A DNA stretch of 63,128 bases, filler included, from Stramenopiles sp. TOSAG23-6 (Eukaryota): NCBI GenBank assembly GCA_900128565.1. It is 47 parts of 47 records of this genome, joined end to end, with 100 filler letters (N's around TTAATTAATTAA, not from the genome) between each part and the next. Parts side by side here need not be neighbours in the genome. Positions count along the whole stretch, not along the records: positions 52,563 to 53,796 come from LT639426.1; positions 53,897 to 55,130 come from LT639427.1; positions 55,231 to 56,464 come from LT639428.1; positions 56,565 to 57,797 come from LT639429.1; 43 more parts are not named here. The stretch is one strand, 5' to 3'. Under the pieces are notes generated by a model. The model worked only from the letters and a program-made list of their open reading frames with translations. It was not told where the DNA came from and made no database searches. Position numbers and translations under genes: made by a program. Below, in pieces: positions 27,162 through 63,128 of this stretch (its first letter is position 1; each line of letters starts with the position of its first letter).

Positions 27162-28210
27162 ATTTGGACGATAACCCTAACCCTACCCTCAAACAAAATA
27201 ATAAGTATTATGGTCAATGTGGCATTGTATTTGCTTTACAACAAGCTATTGGTAATACATCTATTGCTTTAGGCTCAGCGAATCCAAAAAGAACTAAACG
27301 AATAAATTATGTACATAACCCTAACCCTAAAAAACCCTAACCCTAAAAAAAACCTAAACCTAAAAAACCCTAACCCTAAAAAAAAACTAAAAATTCATTT
27401 CCTAAAACCTAAAAAAAAATCGTAGCAAATTTTGTACCTAACAAATTTCAAACGTTTAAAAATATTTTTTTGTACTCCAGGCTTCAGAGAACTTTGCTCA
27501 AAATTATGTGGCATGTATGTTTTTATTTTTTTCTTACAAAAACATCGATTTTTTTTTTTTTGATTTTTTTTCATAAAAAAATTTTGTACCTAACAAATTT
27601 TTTTTTTTTAGAAAATTTTGAAATATTTTTCCAAAATACATCGCCAAAAGTCTCCGCTGCAGCATTTCGTATTCCAGTTTTGTCTAAAGCTCGGCGTGAA
27701 ATCAAATCGATAAGTCAAGATGTGTTAGCAAGATGGTACGTTACCATTTTGAACCCTACTATATGAATTTGGCATTAGGGTTAGGGTATGAATTTCATCA
27801 TTTTTTTTTTTAATTTTTTTTTTTAAATTTTTTTTTTAAATTTTTTTTTTTAAATTTTAATTTCAATTTCAATGTTTTTATTTTTTTTTGCATGATATAT
27901 TTTCTCAACTAATATGTGGGATTTTCGAGAAGAGATATTTCTTACTCTTTTAACCATTCTTCATTGGTTTAGATCTGAAATAATAAAAACAAGAATTTGT
28001 ACCGATATAAATTTGAAATCAGGAAATCTGTTAGGTACGAAATTTACTATGAAAAAAAATATAAATTTGAAATCGAATTTGCAATTTGGCGAAATTTTGA
28101 CTTTGGTAGCAAAACAATTACAGATAGGTCTTCGCGGTGGTCTCCCACCCTCTTTAATTGCATCACATATGCAGGTTGTTGATGAAATTGTTCAACATTA
28201 TGGAAGTAAT
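27162..28210 (+). CDS. Hypothetical protein fragment, 4 exons; introns 27311-27480 (GT-AG), 27515-27641 (GT-AT), 27736-27915 (GT-AT)
   Basis: Frame continuous after splicing: RINY|ASENFAQNYVA S PKV...LAR W WDFREE. Confidence 0.7.
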
Positions 28211-36608: not shown

Positions 36609-37679
36609 TTCGCACGAAAAACGAAAAGCTCAATAAGATCCGGTCTTGTAGAAATTATTGACTGTATGATGTTTTCTTTAGAAATTTGTTTCTTTTTAAA
36701 GTGTAAAGCAGGTGATGAACATTTGAAACAAATTTCATAAATGTCAAATAACCATTGTACAATTCGAAACGTGGGTTTATTTTGGAAAAATATTTAAAAA
36801 AAAAAACTAAAATTTGTTAGGTACAAAATTTCGTACGAAAATCAAAAAAAAAAAAAAAATCGAATTTTTTTGTAAAAAAAATAAAATAAAACATACGTCC
36901 TGGACCACAAAGCATCAATGATGTGAGTAACCATTTTATATATATTGTTTAAAAATATTTCAAAACAAATAAAAAATTTTATTTTTTTGGTTTTTTTGGT
37001 TTTTTGGTTAGTTGCAAATGTTTTGAATTTTTTTTTTTTTGTTTTTGGTTAGGTACAAAATTTCGTATGAAAAAAAAAAATTAAAAAAACAAAAAATATA
37101 CATTGAAATGAATGATGAAAACATACACGGAACTCTTTCGGTATCTTTGTTTCATATTCTTCACTATTAGGGTTAGGGTTTATAAGACTATTGGGGGTAT
37201 CCAGCTTTATCTTTGATACATGTTCGACAACATGACAACTACTACTATCATTATACGGTGTTACAAAAATATTAAAAAAAAAAAATTGTAAGATTAAAAA
37301 AAAAAAAAAAATAAATAAATAAAAAATAAAAAAAAAATAAAAAAAATACATTGAAAACAACTTACCTGAAGACCAGTGTAGATATCTTTTTCACTTCCAT
37401 TTATATCAATGACAACAATATTATTATGTCGCCATTCAATGCGATATACATCTTTATAATTTGATACTACTTTTTTCATTGTACGGCAATATTCAATTTG
37501 AGCAGAACTTAATCTATTCGAAATTGAGTTTGTACCAAATTTTGTACCTAATGAATTTTGAGACCCTTCATATTTGTTTTTTAATGATTTATATTTTGAC
37601 TCCCAGATTTCACATGTACCATTATTTAGTAACAATGCAATAGTATTTCCATTCCTTGTAGGTGAAATCATTCTTGGAA
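36609..37679 (-). CDS. Hypothetical protein fragment, 4 exons
   Basis: Frame continuous across introns 36940-37126 (GT-AT) and 36775-36896 (GT-AC). Confidence 0.65.
36775..36896 (-). other. Family intron, GT...AC, with flanking AC direct repeat
   Basis: GGA C|GTATGT ... CCAAAATAAAC|CC ACG gives CGPG P TFRIVQW. Confidence 0.75.
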
Positions 37680-47270: not shown

Positions 47271-48384
47271 TTGGAAGAACAAAATCAAATGAAACAAAAC
47301 AAAAATAATTCTGATTCATTAGGTCAAGAGTTTATCATGGGTTCAAAAAATGATATTAAAAAAAATGTAATATTGGGATTAGAACAAAAAGGAACAATGA
47401 CAAGTATGAAATATCGTATTAAAAAACTATTATTGACTGTTGTGCGTGAAACATTTCATTCTGGAATCATTCGAGGTGAAGGTATGTTTTTTTTTTAATT
47501 TTGAAATTTTTTTTTTTTTTTTTTTCAATCTTTAATGATTTTTTTTATAGTAAATTTTGTACCTAACAAAAAAAAATGAAAAAAATATTTTTTCACAATA
47601 CAGCAGGACGAATATCCAATCAAATGGAATCATATTTTTCAGATATATTGGCTCATGTTCGCGAAGAAGTGAAGCAATATTCCACGCAACTACAATTGAA
47701 AAATACAAAAAATACAAAAAATGCAGAGAAAAACGAAAAACCCGAAAATACAGAAAATACAGAAAATACAGAAAATACAGAAAATATACAAAAAAGTAAA
47801 CAAAAAATCCAAGGACAATTACTTGAATTGGAACTTTGTGATTCACAATCAAACACTACATTACGTCATCTTGAAATGATTGAAGCTGCACGAAAAACAA
47901 AAGATAAAAGTAAAATTTGTGATGCATGTATGTTTTATTTTTTTTTTACAAAAAAATCGAATTTATTTTTCGTACGTAATTTTGTACCTAACGAATTTTT
48001 TTTTTTTTATTGAAATATTTTTCCAAAATACATGGAATAACTATTCTTGTTATAATTGTCGAATTAATAATATCGATGTTGCAAAAGCATCTATTGATGA
48101 AGCATTGCATATTTGTCCAGATAACAAAAATTCTCAATTTATATCAATGATTATTCAACTTGAACAACAAAATTATGAAGGTGTAGTAAAAAATGGTACA
48201 AAAAATGGTACAAAAAATGGTACAAAAAATGGTACAAACAATGGTACAAACAATGAATTACATTCAAGAATTCTTCAATGGTTGCTAAAAGTTGTTGAAT
48301 CAATTGCTGCTGAAAAATGTGATTTGTTTGAAAAGAGAGATAATTTACTCCTAGAATCTCTTTCAATGTCTAATATGAATGCAT
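47271..48384 (+). CDS. TPR-like protein fragment; introns 47482-47603 (GT-AG) and 47928-48033 (GT-AT)
   Basis: Joins GAA G|CA and GCA T|GG keep the frame. DAWNN...AKASIDEALHICP. Confidence 0.65.
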
Positions 48385-49341: not shown

Positions 49342-49990
49342 TAGATTAAATAATATTTTCTAAAACGTATTATTGTGCATTATATAAATAGGACTTGATA
49401 GAGAGAGGTTGACTGCTGTGTAATAATTTAATTATGTGAATGTGATTGACTGTCAAAAGTGATTGGATTGAAACTTCACGATACACGAAATCATGAAAAA
49501 ACAGTTTTTTTTTCATAGGAAATTTCGTACCTAACGTGTTTTCATGATTTTTATTATAAGAAACGCCCGATTTATTTCGTGTTTTTTCCGCGAAATCATG
49601 GAAATACGTTAGGTACAAAATTTACTACGGAAACTTATTAAAACTTCATGACAAAAAAAAAATTGTGAAGTTTCCAATCAGTCAAGAGTCTAGAGTCAAG
49701 ACTGTCAAAATCCGAAAAGAAAACGAAAAAGCGATTGCGAAGACTTTGGAAAAATCTGGAAATTAAAAATTCGTCATAAAAAATTGCCAAANNNNNNNNN
49801 NNNNNNNNNNNNNNNNNNNNNNNNNNNNNNNNNNNTTAATTAATTAANNNNNNNNNNNNNNNNNNNNNNNNNNNNNNNNNNNNNNNNNNNNTATATATTG
49901 TTTTTGTTTAGGTACAAAATTTCGTACGAAAAAAAAATTATAAATTTGAAATAATAAATTTGAAATTGAAATGAATAATGAAAAACATAC

Positions 49991-51447: not shown

Positions 51448-52715
51448 TGTGATTTGTGTCGTTTGTGTCGTTTCTTATTCAATATATAGCAAAGAACTTC
51501 AAAGAACGTAAAGTTTTGTTTGTAAAATATTTACCTTGCGAGAAATTACATGGAGAGAAACAGAGCGACGAAAACGGAATTCGTACTTATTATATACGGA
51601 AAGTTTAACCGTCCAAACGCGCGCTGGAATTCCTACACGACGATTTTTGGATACGATTTATAACCGACGGGAGCCCACATTTTTTTTTCCAACTTGTTGT
51701 TGGCCGGCCGCCGGAGATTTTTCGATGTAAAAAAAAATCCGATAATTTCGAATCTCAAAATTCTGCTCTCTCTTGCAACTGTCATCATTTTCTCCTAGAA
51801 ATCCAGTAATTATTACTGTACAATCACCGTTTTCACTTGAGTCAATTTACCAATTTACACTTGATAGCATATTTTTAGATGTATGTTCTATTAGCTATAC
51901 GGGTACTGGCAGTTAGTACGTCCCTTTTAATGGGTCAAAAGAGCCACAAGAGCCACAAGAGCCACAAGAACCACAAGAATGTCATGAAAAAAAGGTCAAA
52001 AGTTTCAAAACGATAAAATAAAATGTAAAATCTAATTTGGGAGAAAATGACTTGATGTATTGAAATTTTATTATTATATCAACTAATAAATTCTTTTTCT
52101 GTATCTTATGATGAATGTTTTTGATACTAACAATACATTTATATATAGTTTCATAGTTTCATTATACTCTTCTTCGTCCAACGAGAGCTTTCCCCGACAC
52201 TAGCCATATGTTCATAGGACGAGTCACGAGTCAAAAAAACCATCGTCATCATCACTATCGCTGCTATCCCAAGTAGATCCTTCATCGTTTCTACTATCTT
52301 TCATCTGACCAAAATATGCCGCGTAATCAGGATTTTTATTTTCCTGTTGTCTTCTTGTTTCATCTTTCATCTGACCTTCTTTTTCGTTTTTCATCATTTC
52401 CTCTGCTGCTTTTTGCCTTCTTCGCTGTGCTCTGCGTTCCATCCGAAGTCGTTGATTTTTTANNNNNNNNNNNNNNNNNNNNNNNNNNNNNNNNNNNNNN
52501 NNNNNNTTAATTAATTAANNNNNNNNNNNNNNNNNNNNNNNNNNNNNNNNNNNNNNNNNNNNAGGTGGATGAAGCTGTTGAAAAACCTGAAGAAGTAGAA
52601 GCACCAAAGGTGGATGAGTAAAATTTCAATATATTTCTTTGCCATCAANTTTTTTTAATGTAGATTCAATTTTAGATTAAAAAACAACAATATTTCCTGT
52701 ANTTTTTATCATCAT

Positions 52716-53230
52716 TTATTTTTTCAAATACAACATTTGAACTNCTTNAAGGCGTTTGGTTAGATTTTTTCTTTCATCAATGTTTTCATCACAGATCAAA
52801 TCCATATTTAAATCATTTAAATGCCTATTATTTTTTTTACATTCCTCTTCTTTTTCCAAAATACATTTTTTTTCCGTACTAATTTTTGTACTTAAAGATT
52901 CCTTCAACAATAGAAACATCCTTTCAAGATTTGTCTTTTCTGTACTAGATAAAAACATTAATAACATTTCAAATCGTGGTAATGTTGCCACTTTTTCTAT
53001 TATTTCGATTGCTTTTTGTGCGTTAGAAAAAGAATGCGTACCAAAATCACATGAAATATCTACAATTTCAAGTAAGCGTTCAGCTTCCAATGACGTTTTA
53101 AACACTTTTTTAATCATTTTTGTCTTTTTTGGAAGTTTTAATAAATAGTTCCATCTCATATCTCGACATTGTTTTAACTGACGCCAAGTGCGTTCAAACT
53201 CAAAACCAGAGGTTGGTGTGGTAAGAATTA
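52716..53230 (-). CDS. RPAP3 C-terminal-like domain
   Basis: PTSGFEFERTWRQL...KVFKTSLE...PRFEMLLMFLSSTEK. Confidence 0.75.
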
Positions 53231-53289
53231 TTTTTTGTATTTTTTGTATTTTTTGTATTTTTTGTATTTTTTGTATTTTTTGTATTTTG

Positions 53290-53718
53290 TGAATTTTGAA
53301 TTGATACAGAGTTAGGGTTAGGGTTAATTCTCCGCATATTTGTTAACCATTGTATACATTTCCCTTCTTTCTCTCTATTATTTGAATTTTGTGTCCAAAT
53401 GGCACTTCGGTAGCCATATAGTGTAGAACTGTATTTCAAAAAACATTCAATAATATTTGTTAGGTACAAAATTCACTACAAAAAAAAAAAATGTTGAAAT
53501 TTTTTTTTTGAAATTTTCAAACGAAAAAAAATAAATTTGAAATTCATGATGAAAACGTATATTAACATCACCCGCTTCCATTTCAATCAAATCATGCCAT
53601 ATCTTAAAATACTCAAAATGAACTTTTGATAGATGACCAATTGCGTTATTGTAATTTTCATACCCAAATCCACTTGAATCTTTCGTGCCACCTTCTAAGG
53701 ATGTATGAACTAACGCAC
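53290..53718 (-). CDS. DNA2: DNA2 nuclease/helicase fragment; AT-AT intron 53416-53560
   Basis: HLSKVHFEYFKIWHDLIEME...RSAIW...REKEGKCI. Confidence 0.7.
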
Positions 53719-53896
53719 CTGTTTTGTGAAAAAAAAAAAAAAAAAAAAAATTTTTAGGTAAAAAATTTCGTACGAAAAAAAAAAAAAAAAAAAAAANNNN
53801 NNNNNNNNNNNNNNNNNNNNNNNNNNNNNNNNNNNNNNNNTTAATTAATTAANNNNNNNNNNNNNNNNNNNNNNNNNNNNNNNNNNNNNNNNNNNN

Positions 53897-55130
53897 AAAT
53901 TAGAAATCCGTCCGCGTATTTCGTCGCCAGCTGTGAATTTGAATCAATATAAAAACAATGAGAATTCGAGATTGAAAGATAAGCAATCTAAGAATGATAA
54001 CAATGGCCAAAATAGTAAAAATCATGTAAATATTGAAAATAATGAAAATGATAATGTACAAAATAATTTGGTCATATCTCCAAGTCCAAAAAAAGTTTCA
54101 CTTAACGCTTCTGGTTCATACGATGACACAAATTATGCTAATGCAATACGATCTGCTGCATCGGATGAATATTCGAAAGTTGAAAGTTCATGCAACACAC
54201 CTCCTTTTGGCTTATGTGATGATCCTGGAACAAATNNNNNNNNNNNNNNNNNNNNNNNNNNNNNNNNNNNNNNCTGTTCCTGCACTACATATTTTACAAC
54301 AGATGGAACCGTCAAAACTGGCAAACATAAAAAATTTTGAAGTTGGTAATGATAATGTTGGTTCTGTAACATGGAACTCTAGTGAATTTAGCCCAAATAA
54401 TGAATCGTATGCCAATACTGATGTACGTGGTATTGATTTATCGGTGATTAAAATAGGAATTGATAAGAATGGTTATGGGTTTGTTAGTGTTTATGACGAT
54501 GATGATAAGAAACCTGATGTTGGTAAAAAATTAAATAAACCTGCACAAATAACATTGCAACGAATATACCCTCCAGTGGGATGTTCGGCAAAGAAAATGA
54601 TTAAATGGTCTGAAAAAATTCGTCGTAATACAAAAAAAATGGTTGATTCTGAATCTGATGGTGAAGATACACAAGACATTGACGCTCATGATAAGCCTCA
54701 GTGGTTTCCAAAAGAAGGCGAATTGATCTTATGGCGTGATGCAGAACATGGACTTCAGAAAGTTATAGTACATAAATCTCATCTTCGTCGTGGTTCGGAA
54801 ATTCCAATTCCCTCAGAGCATTTTTTTACTGTACAATTGGACAATCTAGCTGCTATCCGTGTTCCTTTGACAGAACTTCAACCTATACCACATGGATTTC
54901 ATTTATCTGTACCAAGAGATTCGATGAAGACGGCTGTTGATAATGATGATATTGATCACACTAGCAAACGACAGAAACAAAGTATAACTAGATCAAAGTT
55001 TTCATCGTCTGGTCTTGATAATTCGTGCTCTGAGTCAGAGGCAAGTAGTGATGATGATGGCAGTATATCTGAAGCATCTACCATAAATGGGAAACTTCAG
55101 TTTGCGGCATCTCCTGTGTCAAAAAGTGAT
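53897..55130 (+). CDS. Protein with Nup98/Nup145 autopeptidase-like domain, gapped
   Basis: KNFEVG...GSVTW...TDVRGIDL...VSVY...KPDVGKKLNKPAQITL. Confidence 0.75.
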
Positions 55131-55230
55131 NNNNNNNNNNNNNNNNNNNNNNNNNNNNNNNNNNNNNNNNNNNNTTAATTAATTAANNNNNNNNNNNNNN
55201 NNNNNNNNNNNNNNNNNNNNNNNNNNNNNN

Positions 55231-56202
55231 ATGAACTACGTCGTATGTATTTTCAGTGAGACGTTTACTAATTTCATGTAATAAGCGCTTTTTCTGAAAA
55301 CGACTGCTTCGGGGAACAATTTCATTCAAGTCATCAATGTCTAATATAGAAAGCAAGGAACCATCAATAGAATTAAAATTGAAAGGATCAATGAAGTCAT
55401 TAAAGTTGAGTGATCTCAAAAAATTTGATACACCTCTTATTGACAAGGAGTTAAAAACGCAAATTGTGTCTTTACTTTTTGGATTTTCCTTCGCAATATA
55501 TCCATTTGAAGCTGAATGTGGCTTCGTCTTTTGGCATCGTGGTAGTTGTGCTCGTATTGAGGCCTCGTCGTTTTTTAAGATTGTAATAGCATTCTCGGCT
55601 TGTTCCTTCTGCTGATTAATTATAGTCATAGGATCATCCCAACTACTTTGATTCGTATTTTTATTGTGCCAGTATGAACTAGAAGTTGTTTCACTTTTAA
55701 TTTCTACCCATTCTGAACTGCTGCTCCGTTCAAGGTCCAAATCTTTGTGTAAGTGANNNNNNNNNNNNNNNNNNNNNNNNNNNNNNNNNNNNNNNNNNNN
55801 NNNNNNNNNNNNNNNNNNNNNNNNNNNNNNNNNNNNNNNNNNNNNNNNNNNNNNNNNNNNNNNNNNNNNNNNNNNNNNNNNNNNNNNNNNNNNNNNNNNN
55901 NNNNNNNNNNNNNNNNNNNNNNNNNNNNNNNNNNNNNNNNNNNNNNNNNNNNNNNNNNNNNNNATATTTTTAGTGCTCTATTCATCATTTTAGCTTTGTG
56001 TAATGCTGTAACAGTTGCAAGGGCAGCAACTTGTTCAGTATCAGACCTCGCCCGCGCATCGTTTGCTTTTATTCGCGCATTTTTTACAAAAACCTTTATA
56101 TCATCAAGTGCCTTTCTCTTTCCAATTTCAGATGAGGTACCTACGGATGATTCGTAGTCAATTTGCGATTGTAAACACATGTTTGTAGGTGTACTGCTTG
56201 TG
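55231..56202 (-). CDS. WW + SAM domain protein fragment
   Basis: EWVE...YWHNKNTNQSSWDDP; VSNFLRSL...IDGSLL. Confidence 0.8.
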
Positions 56203-56666
56203 NNNNNNNNNNNNNNNNNNNNNNNATATTTTTAGTGCTCTATTCATCATTTTAGCTTTGTGTAATGCTGTAACAGTTGCAAGGGCAGCAACTTGTTCAG
56301 TATCAGACCTCGCCCGCGCATCGTTTGCTTTTATTCGCGCATTTTTTACAAAAACCTTTATATCATCAAGTGCCTTTCTCTTTCCAATTTCAGATGAGGT
56401 ACCTACGGATGATTCGTAGTCAATTTGCGATTGTAAACACATGTTTGTAGGTGTACTGCTTGTGNNNNNNNNNNNNNNNNNNNNNNNNNNNNNNNNNNNN
56501 NNNNNNNNTTAATTAATTAANNNNNNNNNNNNNNNNNNNNNNNNNNNNNNNNNNNNNNNNNNNNTTTTTTTAAATTTTTTTTGTTACAAAATTTTGTCCC
56601 TAAAAANTTTTTTTTTTTTTTTTTTGAAACTAAAAAAAAAAATTTGAAATATTTTCCAAAATACAT

Positions 56667-57675
56667 GTCCAAATGATACAAATGGGATTCTTGCTTGGCC
56701 AACAGAACGTGATGAATCAGATGCTTTAGTCATTCGATTAGATGCTCGAGATGGATCTGTGACAATGATAAAAACAATTGACAGTTTTGGTACTGATAAA
56801 GCTCAAGCTATTACAAGTAATAATGATTATCTATTTGTTGTGGTTACAACCACTGGAAACTATCTACAAGCATGTTTTATTTTTTTCAAATTTTTATCTA
56901 AATTTTTTTTTTTTTGGTTTTCATACGAAATTTCGTACCTAACAAAAAAAAATCAAAAAAAAATATATTTTCACAATACAAAATACTGGTAGAGATTGTG
57001 TCATTGGTCTTGGATCTGTTTGCTTTACAAGTATTGATTTATTTATTTTGGAAATAAATACAAAAACAGGAAAAATTCTAGAACGATTTCAGTGGGGTGG
57101 ACAAGGAGAAGATGTATGTTTTATTTTTTTTTTTTTTACCGAAAAAAAAAAAATCAATTTTTTTTTTTATAAAAATTTTGTACCTAACGATTTTTTTACA
57201 AAAAAATATTTTTCAGAATACATAGTGTTCAAGATATCGCAATGGCTCCAAATTTTGATCCTGAATGTGAACAATGTTTTTATGTATTGGGGACTACAAC
57301 CAATCCTATATCAAATACAAATACTAAATCAACAAATACAAATACTAAATCAACAAATACAAATACTTCATCAAATCCATCAAATATAAATACAGATTCT
57401 ACAAATGAAAATACTTTTGTTAATTTTGGTCGATGTGGAAAATCATTTTCTTGTGGAGGCCAAGATGTCTTTGTAGCATTAATCGATACACGAAAAAATT
57501 TACAACCTATACGTTGGATAACTCTTCTCGGTGAAAAAGATAATGACTATGCTCATGGACTTACTTGGTTTGCTGGTAGTTTACATATATTATCGTCTAC
57601 AAAAGCAATAGGCAAAAACAACAAAAACAACATTGACGTATCTCAACAGAATTCAAATTTAAATTCAAATGTAAT
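56667..57675 (+). CDS. Beta-propeller-like repeat protein, 3 exons; introns 56870-56981 (GC-AA) and 57114-57223 (GT-AT)
   Basis: Recurring DxFV/GxxxxD.A..I motifs. Frame continuous after splicing. Confidence 0.7.
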
Positions 57676-57897
57676 GTATGTTTTAATTTTTTTCAATTTT
57701 TTTTTTCGAAAATTAAATTTTTTTTTATACGAAATTTTGTACCTAACAATTTTTTTTTTTTTTTGGTAAAAAAATTTTGAAATATTTTTCCAAAATANNN
57801 NNNNNNNNNNNNNNNNNNNNNNNNNNNNNNNNNNNNNNNNNTTAATTAATTAANNNNNNNNNNNNNNNNNNNNNNNNNNNNNNNNNNNNNNNNNNNN

Positions 57898-59029
57898 CAA
57901 ATAATTTGACTTTTGTATTTTGGAAAAATATTTCAAATTTTTTTTGTTAGGTTCAAAATTCCGTACGAAAAAAAAATTCGATTGTTTTGTAAAAAAAAAA
58001 ATAAAACATACATCCCCAAATTCAACGCTGCAGAAGCTGAATATTTTGATTTGGATTTTTGTACGATTTCATTATTTTTTGATTCAGTATTGTTCAAATG
58101 ACCTAATTGTAATGCACGTATTAAATAATGTTGTTGAGTCATACCACTACTCATTGACTCGGATGTACCCATTGCATCCATCGCTCCGTTGGCACCAGCA
58201 AGACCAATCCACCAGATATTGTGAAGAATATTTTTTTTGTTTTTTTGTTTTTTTGTTAGTGAAAAAAAAATGTTAGGTACAAAATGTACTATAAAAACAA
58301 ATTAGATTAAAAAACATCAATTTTGAAAACGTACAGCGTTGATCACAGGGATTACAAATAATTGCACTAGAAAACATTTTTTTTGCTTCTTCTGTACAAC
58401 TTTTAAAATTTGTATTTTTCTTTTGTTGTTGAATTTTATAATTCTTGAGATAAAATATATTGTACATTAATATTTCAAACATTCGATGTTATTGTTAGGT
58501 ACAAAACGTCGTATGAAAATTAAAAAAAATAATACATTCAAAATTCATAATGAAAACCTATATATCCCGACATCTCCCCATGTTTCTGCTAACCAAGGCG
58601 ATATTCGAATTCTACGAAGAAAAGCTGCCCTACATTGCTTTGAATACTTTTGGTAAGTTTCAAATACCATATTGTTATCAATATGATTCATTGTAGTAAC
58701 ATCAATATTGTTCTCATGTATACCACAAAAAGCTTCTAATGGCACATCCATGGCTAGAGAATTTAAATCTCCTAGTAATTTTATACAACAGATAGAATCA
58801 GATCGTATGTTTTTGAAAAAATATTTCAAAAAAAAAATTTGTTAGGTACAAAATTTCGTATGAAAATAAATTCGAAATTGAAAAAAAATAAAACATACAG
58901 ATGTACACAACGCTGAGCAGCTTTGATGCCATCAGATAATGCTACAGCGGCAGCAGACATTCTTCCCGATTGGATCATTTTTTTTGCGTGATAGAGACGA
59001 ACATTTGCTGATCCAAACAGAGCTAATAA
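57898..59029 (-). CDS. TPR protein (possibly SKI3/TTC37-like), 5 exons; introns 58807-58898 (GT-AT), 58455-58561 (AT-AT), 58214-58334 (GT-CT)
   Basis: PWLAETWGDVGIF, NPCDQRWWIGLA, QQHYLIRALQL, ALNLG. Confidence 0.65.
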
Positions 59030-59322
59030 ATGTATTTTGGAAAAATATTTCAAAAAAAATCTAAAACAAATTGTTAGGTACAAAATATACTAAAAAAAAA
59101 AAAAAAAATAAAAATTAAAAAAAAAAAAAANNNNNNNNNNNNNNNNNNNNNNNNNNNNNNNNNNNNNNNNNNNNTTAATTAATTAANNNNNNNNNNNNNN
59201 NNNNNNNNNNNNNNNNNNNNNNNNNNNNNNTGGAAAAATATTTCAAAAAAAAATCGTTAGGTACAAAATTTCGTACGAAAAAAAAAATCAGACAAAAAAT
59301 TGAAAAAAAAACTAAAACATAC

Positions 59323-60322
59323 ATATAGACTTCGGTGTAGTTTGAAGAGTATTATGATTTGAAATGATTATTTGAGGTGAGTTATGAGTTGACGAGGGAT
59401 TGATTTTTTGAGGCAGTGCGCCCCAACTCCAACTTGTTTCTTCTTCTGCAATCGTGGAATTTATTTGGTCTACATTTTTATAATTATTATCGTAAAGAGT
59501 ATTCAAAGCATTAGTGCTTGGACGTCTAAAAAAAGAGTGTCGTTGTTTCTTGACGACTTCAACCACAGTATCACTTCTCTCTGATTGAGGATGTTCAGCA
59601 TCATTTATCTGTTCTATAGGGCTAGTAATACCACTCTGTGAATATCGATCACTATCAGGAGAATGTAGTGCGTTCTTTTCCTCTACATTTTGTGGATTTT
59701 GTGGACTCGCCTTCGATGCAGATCCTAGCGACTTTAAGAAACTTTTTGCCTTCAATAGGACTGGACTTGCTGTATGTTGACTAATAACTGCGATACGTGT
59801 GGCTTCAGCAGTGCCTTCCCTTACGATAGGTATTTCTATTTTGAGGTGGCCATTGTCTGTTAAAGTGTCTTTGTTGAGATCGAACTCAATGGGACTTGGA
59901 CTTCTTGACCCTCGAGGACTTCCCAAAGGACTAACAAGAGGACTGACAAGAGGACTCACTAAAGGACTTACTAAAGGACTCACCAAAGGACTTGACAAAG
60001 GAGATGTGTTGTATCCAGGGTCCAACGATGGCACGGACGATTCTCGTACGAAGAACGCTGCACCTTCACTACCTAACTTCATATTAAAAGGCGCAGTTTC
60101 CCCATTTACTTTAATCTTTACTACTTTATCTTTCGAGCTAAATACCTGAAACTTTCCAAATCTTACATGAAATGGGGTACTTTTGATATCATCAGGAGTA
60201 TCTCCCTGAATAGCAACCACATCAATTGCACCTGAAAGTGTCGCAGAATTAATATCTACTGAACTAGCAACACTGTTAACAGAAGCTATTGTATAATCCT
60301 TGACAGTTTTCCAGATCTCCAT
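59323..60322 (-). CDS. PAH1: Lipin/PAH1 phosphatidate phosphatase, N-LIP exon
   Basis: ATLSGAIDVV...STPFHVRFGK...MKLGSEGAAFF; WSWGALP. Confidence 0.93.
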
Positions 60323-60712
60323 CTCACTATTCTATTCAGTATAACCACTCAAATAACAGCAAATGAGTTCAATGGATGCGCTAAATCGTCTGCAATCCAA
60401 GTTGCGTAGTTTTTGCTACTACTCGTAGCTAGTACTGTGCAAATATAGACTTACCGGTAGAGTNNNNNNNNNNNNNNNNNNNNNNNNNNNNNNNNNNNNN
60501 NNNNNNNTTAATTAATTAANNNNNNNNNNNNNNNNNNNNNNNNNNNNNNNNNNNNNNNNNNNNGTGTGGTTTTGAATTATATCAGTAGTATCGTCACTGT
60601 GCGTTGAAGGACTTCTGTTATTGGTTCTTGCTTCAAAAGCGATTTGACTATCTACTGGCCAATATCGATCCCAATACTGTCAACAATATGTCAATATAAA
60701 ACGATAAAAAAA

Positions 60713-61700
60713 CAATGATTATGTAAATATTTCTTTGAATGATCGTATAATATTGAACATACCAGTCAATACCACCTCGACCTTTTGGTTTACAAAAGAA
60801 ATTCCACAGTCTCCAGGTCCGCGTGGTGCATTTGGTACTAATAATGACTCATGGTCTGGTCTTGGCGTGTTCTTCAATATCCGTAATAAGGACAAGGAGG
60901 AGTCATATGTAAGTGCTGTTATAAAAAGTTCAAGTCATCACAAGAACACTTCTCAAATGGAAAAACGATGTAATGCTAAACAATTGCTATGGCAATATTC
61001 GGCAACTAATACTTCGGATGAAACGAGTGCTAAAATTCGTAAATCTCGTGACATAGTCTCACGGGTAAGAATCATATACGATGCCACATTGAAAACTGTT
61101 GTTGTTAACTTGAGTTTTGATAATTAGACCGAAAATAATACTGAGTGGAGACCATGTTTAACGTTACGTGATGTTGAATTACCTCAAAAAGAAGGTTTAT
61201 GTACGTTTTTTCATCATTCATTTTTTTTTTTTTCATATATAATTTCATACCTAACGATTTTTTTTTGTAGCATATTTTTTAGTATACATATTTTTCAGTT
61301 TCTGCAAATTCTCTCGTCAGAGGCGATAAGTATCATCTTCGTAGTCTTGCTGTGGCTTCTGATTGGGATGTATCTGATACAGATTTCAATGATTTTAAAG
61401 CAGATCCAAATCTCAGTCAAGATGACGTACGTTTTTTCATCATGAATTTCAAATTTATTTTTTTCATACGAAATTTTGTACCTAACATTTAAAAAAAAAA
61501 AATTGTACTCAAAAAAATATTTTTTCACAATGCATATATTGAAGATTAACCAGATTCTAAAAAGTTCTGATGTGGATTCTCCTCTCTTACAATTAATCAG
61601 ACAAAATCATGCAAACCATGCCGAGAATATGAATGCTGTACATGAACATATAGAAAATGAACTTGAAGAATTAGAGAATCATATAAGTCATTTAATTCAA
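60713..61700 (+). CDS. L-type lectin (ERGIC-53/VIP36-like) with coiled coil; introns 61201-61289 and 61427-61535; in-frame TAG at 61125
   Basis: FWFT...GAFG...WSGLGVFF, WRPC...VELP, YFSVSA. Confidence 0.75.
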
Positions 61701-61895
61701 GTACGTTTTTCATTTGAATTTCAAATTTATATTAAATTTTTTTTAAATTTTTTTTTTATAAAAATTTTGTACCTAAAAAAAAAAATCAAATTTTTGNNNN
61801 NNNNNNNNNNNNNNNNNNNNNNNNNNNNNNNNNNNNNNNNTTAATTAATTAANNNNNNNNNNNNNNNNNNNNNNNNNNNNNNNNNNNNNNNNNNN

Positions 61896-63128
61896 NTTTT
61901 TTTGGAAAAAATTTTTAAAATTTTTTTTTTTTTTTTTTTTGGTTAGTAAAAAAAAAAAAAAAAATTTTAGTTTAGGTACAAAATTTACTACGAAAAAAAA
62001 AATTTTTTTTTTGAAATTTTGAAATTTTGAAAAAAAAATGAAACATACATACCATCTCGATTTGCAATTTGTCGTCCATGACGAAAATTTGGATTAGGGT
62101 TAGGGTTGTTCTGTATCATTTCTTTGTTTGCCTTGTAATTTTGTGAATTTTTATTTTTTTTTATCGTTTCATAATTTTGATAATTTTGATACTTTTGATA
62201 TGTTGTAGAGTTAGGGTTAGGGTTTTTACAAATGATTGTGTTATAATATCCTTCACTAGAAGGACCAATCATTCCGTCTTTTCCTGCTGCTTTCATAGGT
62301 TTTATAGTAGTAGAAGATTTTGAAGAATTCATATGAATTTGAATGGGTTTTGTTCTTGAAATCACTTCATTTTTTATGATTTCATGTTTTGATTTCGGTT
62401 GAACTGAAAAATTTATCAAATTGACATGTACTTGTAGGAAATATATTTAAATTTTTTTTTTCTTTTTTTTTTTTTTTTTTTTTGGGAAAAAATTTTCTTT
62501 TAAAAAAAAAAATTTTTTTTTTTAAAAGAAAATTTTTTCCCAAAAAAAAAAAAAAAAAAAAAGAAAAAAAAAATTTAAATATATTTCCTACAAGTACATG
62601 TCAATTTGATAAATTTTTCAGTTCAACCGAAATCAAAACATGAAATCATAAAAAATGAAGTGATTTCAAGAACAAAACCCATTCAAATTCATATGAATTC
62701 TTCAAAATCTTCTACTACTATAAAACCTATGAAAGCAGCAGGAAAAGACGGAATGATTGGTCCTTCTAGTGAAGGATATTATAACACAATCATTTGTAAA
62801 AACCCTAACCCTAACTCTACAACATATCAAAAGTATCAAAATTATCAAAATTATGAAACGATAAAAAAAAATAAAAATTCACAAAATTACAAGGCAAACA
62901 AAGAAATGATACAGAACAACCCTAACCCTAATCCAAATTTTCGTCATGGACGACAAATTGCAAATCGAGATGGTATGTATGTTTCATTTTTTTTTCAAAA
63001 TTTCAAAATTTCAAAAAAAAAATTTTTTTTTTCGTAGTAAATTTTGTACCTAAACTAAAATTTTTTTTTTTTTTTTTACTAACCAAAAAAAAAAAAAAAA
63101 AAAATTTTAAAAATTTTTTCCAAAAAAA
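61896..63128. other. Fold-back (inverted duplication) contig containing one exon flanked by family introns
   Basis: Identical 143-aa ORFs at 61988-62419 (-) and 62606-63037 (+). Confidence 0.9.

Follow-up and report, generated by a model that had tools for sequence, protein, structure and literature searches.

A transposon-derived intron family of Stramenopiles sp. TOSAG23-6 that ends mostly in AT and is probably cut according to the element's own end cassette

How is the end of an intron chosen when it reads AT and AGs lie only a few bases away? Two introns of Stramenopiles sp. TOSAG23-6 (GenBank assembly GCA_900128565.1) raise this question, one in a DNA2-like gene (53560-53416) and the other in a gene on the opposite strand (57114-57223). 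Both lie in the window analysed here, a stretch of 63,128 nucleotides (nt) composed of 47 contigs of about 1.25 kb each with N spacers between them, the two introns being on separate contigs. The genome (21.1 Mb, 6,236 contigs) is that of an AT-rich marine microbial eukaryote whose DNA is also present in seawater runs. An 18S gene was located in it, and an HSP90-family search gave no placement of the lineage. The initial annotation had proposed that the acceptor is chosen by its distance from a conserved block, AATATTTT (the box), and not by scanning for the first AG. We find that the majority of introns in this genome are copies of one small mobile element, excised after AT instead of the near-universal AG. 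We consider it likely that this transposon-derived family is removed by the major spliceosome and that the element's end cassette sets the 3' cut.

The junction in DNA2 is fixed by homology. With the upstream exon as the query, HMMER in profile-free mode returned four proteins, all of them Pfam Dna2, against which all combinations of 100 donors and 60 acceptors were scored. Donor 53560 with acceptor 53416 obtained the top score of 721; the only ties were register shifts of 1 and 2 nt that give the same mRNA, and the junction is open and ungapped in the alignments with all four homologues. As annotated, the TAT that closes the intron at 53416 is preceded 13 nt upstream by a CAG (last base 53429), and only the TAT is in phase, the CAG leading to a stop when joined to donor 53560. 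The best GT/GC-AG pair in the gene scored 517 and contains a stop, and the two open pairs (490 and 436) lose conserved residues. The annotated consensus position is also exact, since TTTGAAATA followed by 16 nt ends precisely at 53416. The AATATTTT block itself is broken in this intron and reads AATACAGTT.

In intron 57114-57223 the CAG ending at 57216 and the TAG ending at 57225 both lead to stops with donor 57114, and the CAT restores GQGED-SVQDIA, as had been claimed. Its box-to-end spacing is 19 nt, not 20, with the used CAT at +19 and the unused TAG at +21. This case is weaker than that of DNA2 because an upstream GT at 57092 retains the frame with either AG and because no homologue of the gene was found in a large protein set; Pfam names none of its three exons. 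That set, searched with exons 53561-53716 and 56985-57113, gave no match for either. The GT at 57092 pairs with the U1 RNA of this genome at 6 of 12 positions, compared to 11 of 12 for donor 57114.

Both introns were placed in the context of a genome-wide sample of about 0.9 Mb (as fetched, overlaps counted in), which yielded 289 complete family introns, 245 of them with a confident coding frame on both sides. Later counts refer to 185 in-frame introns with a strong end motif, after 45 weak-motif introns and 15 out-of-frame ones had been set aside. The 17-base branch motif of the family has 4,487 exact copies in the genome and its reversed control has none. Among the 245 introns, the frame is kept in 206 when the cut is placed by the end motif, in 77 when it is placed at the first AG and in 97 at the best fixed distance from the branch; a first-YAG rule (Y, pyrimidine) is in frame in 69-72 of about 236 introns, and a first-YAT rule in 147-163 of 245, below the end motif. 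This frame test rules out the first-AG, first-YAG, first-AT and fixed branch-distance rules. In the 110 introns that do not end in AG and have one within 15 nt of the end, the nearest AG is in frame 33 times, which is the chance level, and the motif end 104 times. AG skipping is therefore general in this genome and goes beyond chance, and the part of the annotated inference that denied first-AG scanning stands. An AG at least 12 nt past the branch is found in 37 of the 175 non-AG introns, in 30 of them solely out of frame. There is no specific AG-free zone past the branch, as AGs are depleted alike before it (36 versus 113 expected) and after it (38 versus 83).

The other part of that inference, a fixed distance from AATATTTT, does not stand. 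In its strict form it would have a factor bound at AATATTTT place the cut 20 nt on, whatever the sequence, and at first sight the spacing agrees: in the 148 introns in which both elements are strong, box-to-end is 20 nt in 119 (109 of them in frame), 19 nt in 21, 21 nt in 4 and longer in 4. The DNA2 end also lies 20 nt from the remnant of the box. The introns with a spacing of 19 (21/21) or 21 nt (4/4), however, separate the two possibilities: the end motif gives the correct frame every time (25 of 25) and box+20 never does. Furthermore, AATATTTT is missing in 34 of 140 introns picked without the use of branch or box, and of 70 introns whose box scores weakly, 53 keep the frame when cut at the motif (a hand count; some of them retain AATAT). 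The box is broken in DNA2, and in 57114-57223 it is 19 nt from the end with the rejected TAG at box+21, a spacing that other introns use. Hence, a ruler of fixed distance is largely refuted, and we regard the strict version as quite unlikely. The last T-run ends 10-11 nt ahead of the junction in 161 of the 185 introns, a count that is partly circular. We read box, T-run and motif as one end cassette of about 20 nt, the last 11 bases of which set the register, with some positional information remaining beside the end motif. The cut probably follows this cassette and not a fixed count from AATATTTT.

A ruler could also start at the branch point, an arrangement known from introns whose branch and acceptor are fused. 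The branch-to-junction distance does peak, at 34-35 and 43-44 nt, but it ranges from 31 to 64 nt (standard deviation 5.9, n=185), and the best single distance is in frame in only the 97 of 245 introns given above. Such a ruler is extremely improbable and a fixed branch distance is refuted, although the distance may have a lower limit of about 30 nt.

The last two bases of the intron have an origin of their own. The element runs from GTAYGTTTT to AAAATAC with short inverted ends (in sequence logos, GTAT..ATAC plus T/A runs with one bulge) and a 2-bp target-site duplication, which is mostly AT. The 185 introns end in AT (149), TT (11), AG (10), GT (6), AA (3), CT (3) and three singles. In 137 of the 185 the end is a copy of the last two bases of the upstream exon, compared to a mean of 104.7 and a maximum of 117 in 5,000 shuffles, and the non-AT ends match the exon end in 20 of 36 cases, where 1.6 are expected. 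This match is specific to each locus, and the last two intron bases are therefore the target-site duplication; the same criterion is used in the accessible part of PMC9860276. Many similar introns at unrelated sites (the 289 of the sample) and a locus-specific duplication are both features of introners, the introns made by mobile elements. The DNA run X3 showed no empty site among the matches listed. AT is retained more often in the right (intronic) copy, 149 of 185, than in the left (exonic) one, 128 of 185. Where the left copy is AT and the right one has departed from it (11 introns), the new end is AG in 6, so that AT and AG are both favoured in register. Position -3 is Y in 99% of the introns (C in 84%) and position -2 is A in 88%; donors have G at +1 in 92%, and AT ends make up 81%. 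CTAAC is present in 122 of 140 introns chosen without regard to the branch.

In front of the branch motif there is often a near-perfect palindrome, TACGAAATTTCGTA (for example at window position 56935), which is less conserved than the branch and is possibly a transposase-binding site. At window positions 49460-49684 two facing copies of the branch motif form a 41-nt inverted repeat (85%) within a larger inverted repeat, and similar inverted pairs occur in two other parts of the genome (L016 and L034). The 49460-49684 structure resembles a miniature inverted-repeat transposable element and may be related to the source of the intron family.

RNA joints were found elsewhere in the genome. Three RNA runs and one DNA run were compared with another genome part, L113, whose parts without RNA coverage carry no information. 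Record 13 of the polyA run X13 consists of three pieces, 7548-7748, 7285-7458 and 6996-7187 of L113, which are contiguous in the record; it thus removes 89 nt (GT..AT) and 97 nt (GT..TT), both of them predicted family introns. At the GT..TT intron the left CG is retained and the right TT is lost, which fixes the register as GT..NN. Record 7 of run X10 also breaks at L113 7458. Three further breaks occur at AT ends, in X13 record 12 (start 5847), X10 record 4 (start 5162) and X13 record 9 (end 2613), with only one half of each joint among the matches listed. In X13 record 12 the exon retains two nearby AGs, a TAG 4 nt and a CAG 7 nt beyond the AT, and X13 record 11, which ends 6 nt short of a donor, is uninformative. 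In the L113 intron bins, the non-polyA run X7 has a very high depth on family sequence compared to the polyA runs, which could represent DNA, unspliced RNA or stable excised introns.

The same joint bears on a reading in which the register is two bases earlier, giving AT..AC introns of a U12-like type with a fixed AC as the acceptor and no AT acceptor at all. An intact duplication gives the same mRNA in either register, and C stands at -3 in 84% of the introns. However, in X13 record 13 it is the left CG that stays and the right TT that goes, the pairing with U1 is in the GT register, and AT is held better on the right than on the left. U12-type introns have an RTATCCTT donor and a branch close to the 3' end, and the donors here are RTAYGTTTT (R, purine), without the U12 motif, with the branch 31-64 nt from the end. 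We consider this reading very unlikely.

Another question is whether the choice is leaky: AGs near the end would compete with it and be partly used, frame tests would see only the productive isoform, and 57114-57223 would really be an intron from 57092 to an AG. The frame retained from 57092 to 57216 or 57225 speaks for this, as do the scarcity of AG at +2 and +3 (5 and 3 of 175 introns, against a background of 9.8) and the 6 of 11 left-AT departures that became AG. Against it, the first 15 exon bases show no loss of AG (145, compared to 145 and 139), 57092 pairs poorly with U1, the open GT/GC-AG pairs in DNA2 score far below 721 and drop conserved residues, and RNA record 12 keeps its nearby TAG and CAG in the exon. 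Some leakiness may exist, but as a replacement for the end-cassette reading we find it unlikely.

The machinery fits the element at its 5' end. The genes for the U5, U2, U1 and U4 small nuclear RNAs (snRNAs) lie head to tail within 640 bases (Table 1), and the U1 5' end, AAAACGUACAUG, is the exact complement of the donor consensus CAU/GUACGUUUU, where the slash marks the exon boundary. Over the 185 donors this U1 pairs at a mean of 10.1 of 11 positions, compared to 7.3 for a standard U1, and with -10.4 versus -2.0 kcal/mol. From these sequences, U1 appears to have changed to match the start of the element. U2 GUAGUA, U5 loop 1 and the U6 ACAGAGA box are standard; the bases immediately 5' of that box in U6 (L053:953-1056) depart from the Rfam consensus, with AUAAU for AACG, a change that might suit the U-rich donor tail. 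In Prp8, compared over human residues 1240-1584, the alpha-finger is near-identical and the residues matching yeast Q1594 and R1604 are retained. The Prp8 gene (L060:2085-8150, minus strand) is a 2,021-residue frame without family introns, and it differs from the human protein in two places, at ILMTAGQATF and around KHFRQYIQYRTD. Slu7 and a U2AF2-like gene are present; both RNA recognition motifs (RRMs) of the U2AF2-like protein (L131:1108-3069, minus strand) match the first RRM of TIGR01642. U2AF1 was not found among 15 zinc-finger hits (8 loci inspected), one more RRM candidate and a motif search in this incomplete genome, so that its absence is only a lead. Duplex folding gave no convincing snRNA partner for the end motif. 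Of the hallmarks of U2-type introns, donor pairing with U1 and U6 and branch pairing with U2 are therefore present, and a 3' AG is found in 10 of 185.

Ordinary introns have not vanished. There are 222 non-coding gaps between coding runs, 115 of which contain the family branch; a further 75 were excluded for a stop at their start, and among the remaining 32 there is one clearly canonical GTAAGT..TAG intron. Ordinary introns are therefore rare in this genome yet still spliced. Removal of the canonical intron, GTAAGT..TACTAAT..TAG at L079:4531-4626, restores DEAGRGPLAGP, an RNase H2 motif.

The conserved U2-type branch and the matched U1 also bear on removal without a spliceosome, either by pairing of the inverted ends in RNA, as in euglenids, or by excision of the element from DNA. 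The ends are indeed short inverted repeats (GTAT..ATAC) flanked by a duplication. However, the mean end-to-end duplex amounts to only -0.95 kcal/mol, and the contigs of the DNA run X3 extend into the introns, with no joined DNA form among the matches listed. Both forms of such removal are highly improbable.

We propose the following mechanism. The family is an element of the form GTAYGTTTT ... branch GTACCTAAC ... T-tract-CA(A/C)AATAC, flanked by the 2-bp duplication, mostly AT, and would leave as a lariat through the spliceosome. Its 5' site would be read by the altered U1 through pairing with CAU/GUACGUUUU, and its branch by a standard U2. The 3' site would be marked early by the cassette of about 20 nt, a T-tract at about -16 to -12 followed by CA(A/C)AATAY, with the AATA box as a helper, possibly through a cassette-reading protein such as a U2AF-like factor. 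The cut would then fall two bases past the end of the element, whichever bases these are; an AG out of register with the cassette would be ignored and one in register would be used. During catalysis, Y(-3) and A(-2) could dock in the normal way, which would leave G(-1) as the sole contact to be given up. The P complex of yeast recognises the three bases singly, Y(-3) through Prp8 Q1594, A(-2) through the branch A and G(-1) through G(+1) (10.1101/212811, PMC12707134). Given Y(-3) in 99% and A(-2) in 88% of the introns here, it is therefore mainly the G(-1) contact that is lost.

Several observations weigh against this account. RNA covers neither 53416-53560 nor 57114-57223, the RNA runs containing only 5-15% of the words of window positions 52563-62500. 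The RNA data are assembled contigs from a strain that differs at a few letters and give no read counts, X10 and X13 belong to one study, minor use of AG may go unseen in them, and X7 record 29 is unspliced over the confirmed 97-nt intron. Since the matrix for the end motif was trained with AT-ending introns that are in frame, its success rate is partly circular, though the chance-level rates for AG are not. Even so, the motif predictor missed 39 of the 245 introns, among them the DNA2 intron, whose end it did not find by itself, and 15 of 200 strong-motif introns are out of frame. A pure motif rule is further opposed by the 14 introns with a strong box and a weak end motif, 10 of which are in frame at +20 and 3 at +19, a point that favours the ruler. 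The sameness of the cassette could reflect shared ancestry, not selection, and at 57114-57223 the upstream GT remains as a frame-keeping alternative. Finally, U1 scores 54.1 bits, below the cut-off of 69.5, its 5' end was placed by the model, 41 of 253 candidates were scored, and the genome may contain a second U1.

Table 1. Coordinates of the introns, their signals, the flanking exons and the snRNA genes. Positions are those of the window unless a genome part is named.
Feature	Coordinates	Strand	Details
Family intron in DNA2	53416..53560	-	145 nt, AT..AT; donor ATACGT, end TAT; exon-end AT duplicated at intron end; best of 6,000 pairs against 4 Dna2 homologues
Branch motif, DNA2 intron	53459..53467	-	GTACCTAAC; branch A at 53460, 44 nt ahead of junction
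Degenerate box, DNA2 intron	53429..53437	-	GAAATACAG; includes skipped CAG (53431-53429)
Degenerate end motif, DNA2 intron	53416..53428	-	TTCTACACTATAT; junction fixed by homology
DNA2 exon upstream of intron	53561..53718	-	preceded by a family intron with in-register CAG end at 53719
DNA2 exon downstream of intron	53203..53415	-	GYRSAIW...GKCI, 71 open codons
Family intron	57114..57223	+	GT..AT, 110 nt; with donor 57114 frame kept only at 57223
Branch motif	57180..57188	+	GTACCTAAC; branch A at 57187, 36 nt ahead of junction
Box	57205..57213	+	AATATTTTT; first base to junction 19 nt
End motif	57213..57225	+	TCAGAATACAT; skipped CAG (57214-57216) and TAG (57223-57225), spanning junction
Exon ending GQGED	56982..57113	+	holds alternative GT at 57092
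Exon starting SVQDIA	57224..57675	+	next family donor at 57676
Family intron	56870..56981	+	GC..AA, 112 nt; AA flanking element on both sides; frame kept
Family intron	47482..47603	+	GT..AG, AG on both sides; AG in register with end motif used
U5, U2, U1 and U4 snRNA genes	L051:9-645 (G000:C1146)		head to tail, 640 bases; repeated at same coordinates on contig C6122
U1 5' end	L051:348-359		exact complement of family donor including exon-side CAT

Some features of the window fall outside this scheme. At 36775-36896 and 36939-37126 (minus strand) the aligned ends of two family introns break the frame, one of them being AC with AC on the left; the cause could be a faulty assembly, a displaced end or a second branch. 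A directly repeated block around an N gap (55966-56203 and 56227-56464) and a last contig that is identical when read on both strands (61897-63128) are assembly oddities. TTAGGG-type repeats occur within introns and coding exons (NPNP peptides) at 27330-27400 and 53317-53333.

Comparison with known systems is made here with the accessible parts of the papers cited. In Fritillaria borealis and F. pellucida, transposon-derived non-canonical U2 introns dominate, with 3' AT in 34% and 44% (PMC13326754, PMC11282704). The likeness extends to YAY both ahead of the donor and at the 3' end, and to a retained core spliceosome. There, however, the main classes start with AG, the ends are diverse, the U1 5' end is not rewired and the U2AF genes are duplicated. 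Here, GT donors make up 92% instead of being outnumbered by non-GT ones, a single family with a strong branch motif dominates, AT ends reach 81%, U1 is changed and U2AF1 was not found; one U2AF2-like gene, in an incomplete genome, contrasts with the duplicated, divergent U2AF subunits of Fritillaria. The introners of the Chrysochromulina family are similar in being multi-copy, with the element bringing the donor, the duplication supplying the acceptor and the mRNA length unchanged (PMC9860276, PMC12130899). Their duplication is 4 bp and the surveys count AG or AC as 3' sites, as opposed to 2 bp and no need for an AG here. In Entamoeba and Mastigamoeba balamuthi the U1 5' end is likewise altered for an atypical donor, and in M. 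balamuthi the core, ACGUAC for GUACGU, is identical (10.1101/2022.06.08.495308). In the present genome the U1 change also spans the exon side (CAU for CAG) and the U-run to +9, and it is accompanied by a non-AG acceptor and an introner family. Docking as in the yeast P complex, with Y(-3) contacting Prp8 Q1594 and A(-2) contacting the branch A, is compatible with the ends found here (10.1101/212811, PMC12707134); unlike in yeast, the G(-1)-G(+1) pair is missing in about 95% of the introns with the alpha-finger unchanged. Among protists and marine stramenopiles, a literature search, with supplements and most subscription papers outside its scope, turned up no comparable GT-AT or GU-AU system; the family tables in PMC9860276 and PMC12130899 could be relevant to the question of precedent.

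These comparisons allow a broader and more tentative picture, which we consider possible though doubtful as a whole: a spliceosome rebuilt around one transposon, in which U1 would read the target site and the left end, the AG check by U2AF1 would have been lost or replaced, a right-end factor would set the cut, acceptors would by default be YAT in place of YAG, and nearly every 2-bp duplication would yield a clean intron, all with an unchanged catalytic core. Structural work accounts for the 3' AG by its pairing with the branch A and with the G that opens the intron. With about 95% of the sampled introns lacking it, and with U6, U5 and the Prp8 alpha-finger unchanged, this organism is a natural test of the step that enforces AG, and its matched U1 is a direct case of a spliceosome co-evolving with an intron-making transposon. 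The natural variants in spacing, decoy AGs and mismatched duplications make the rules testable with RNA data alone. Gene prediction that presupposes AG will also splice the genes of this organism wrongly.

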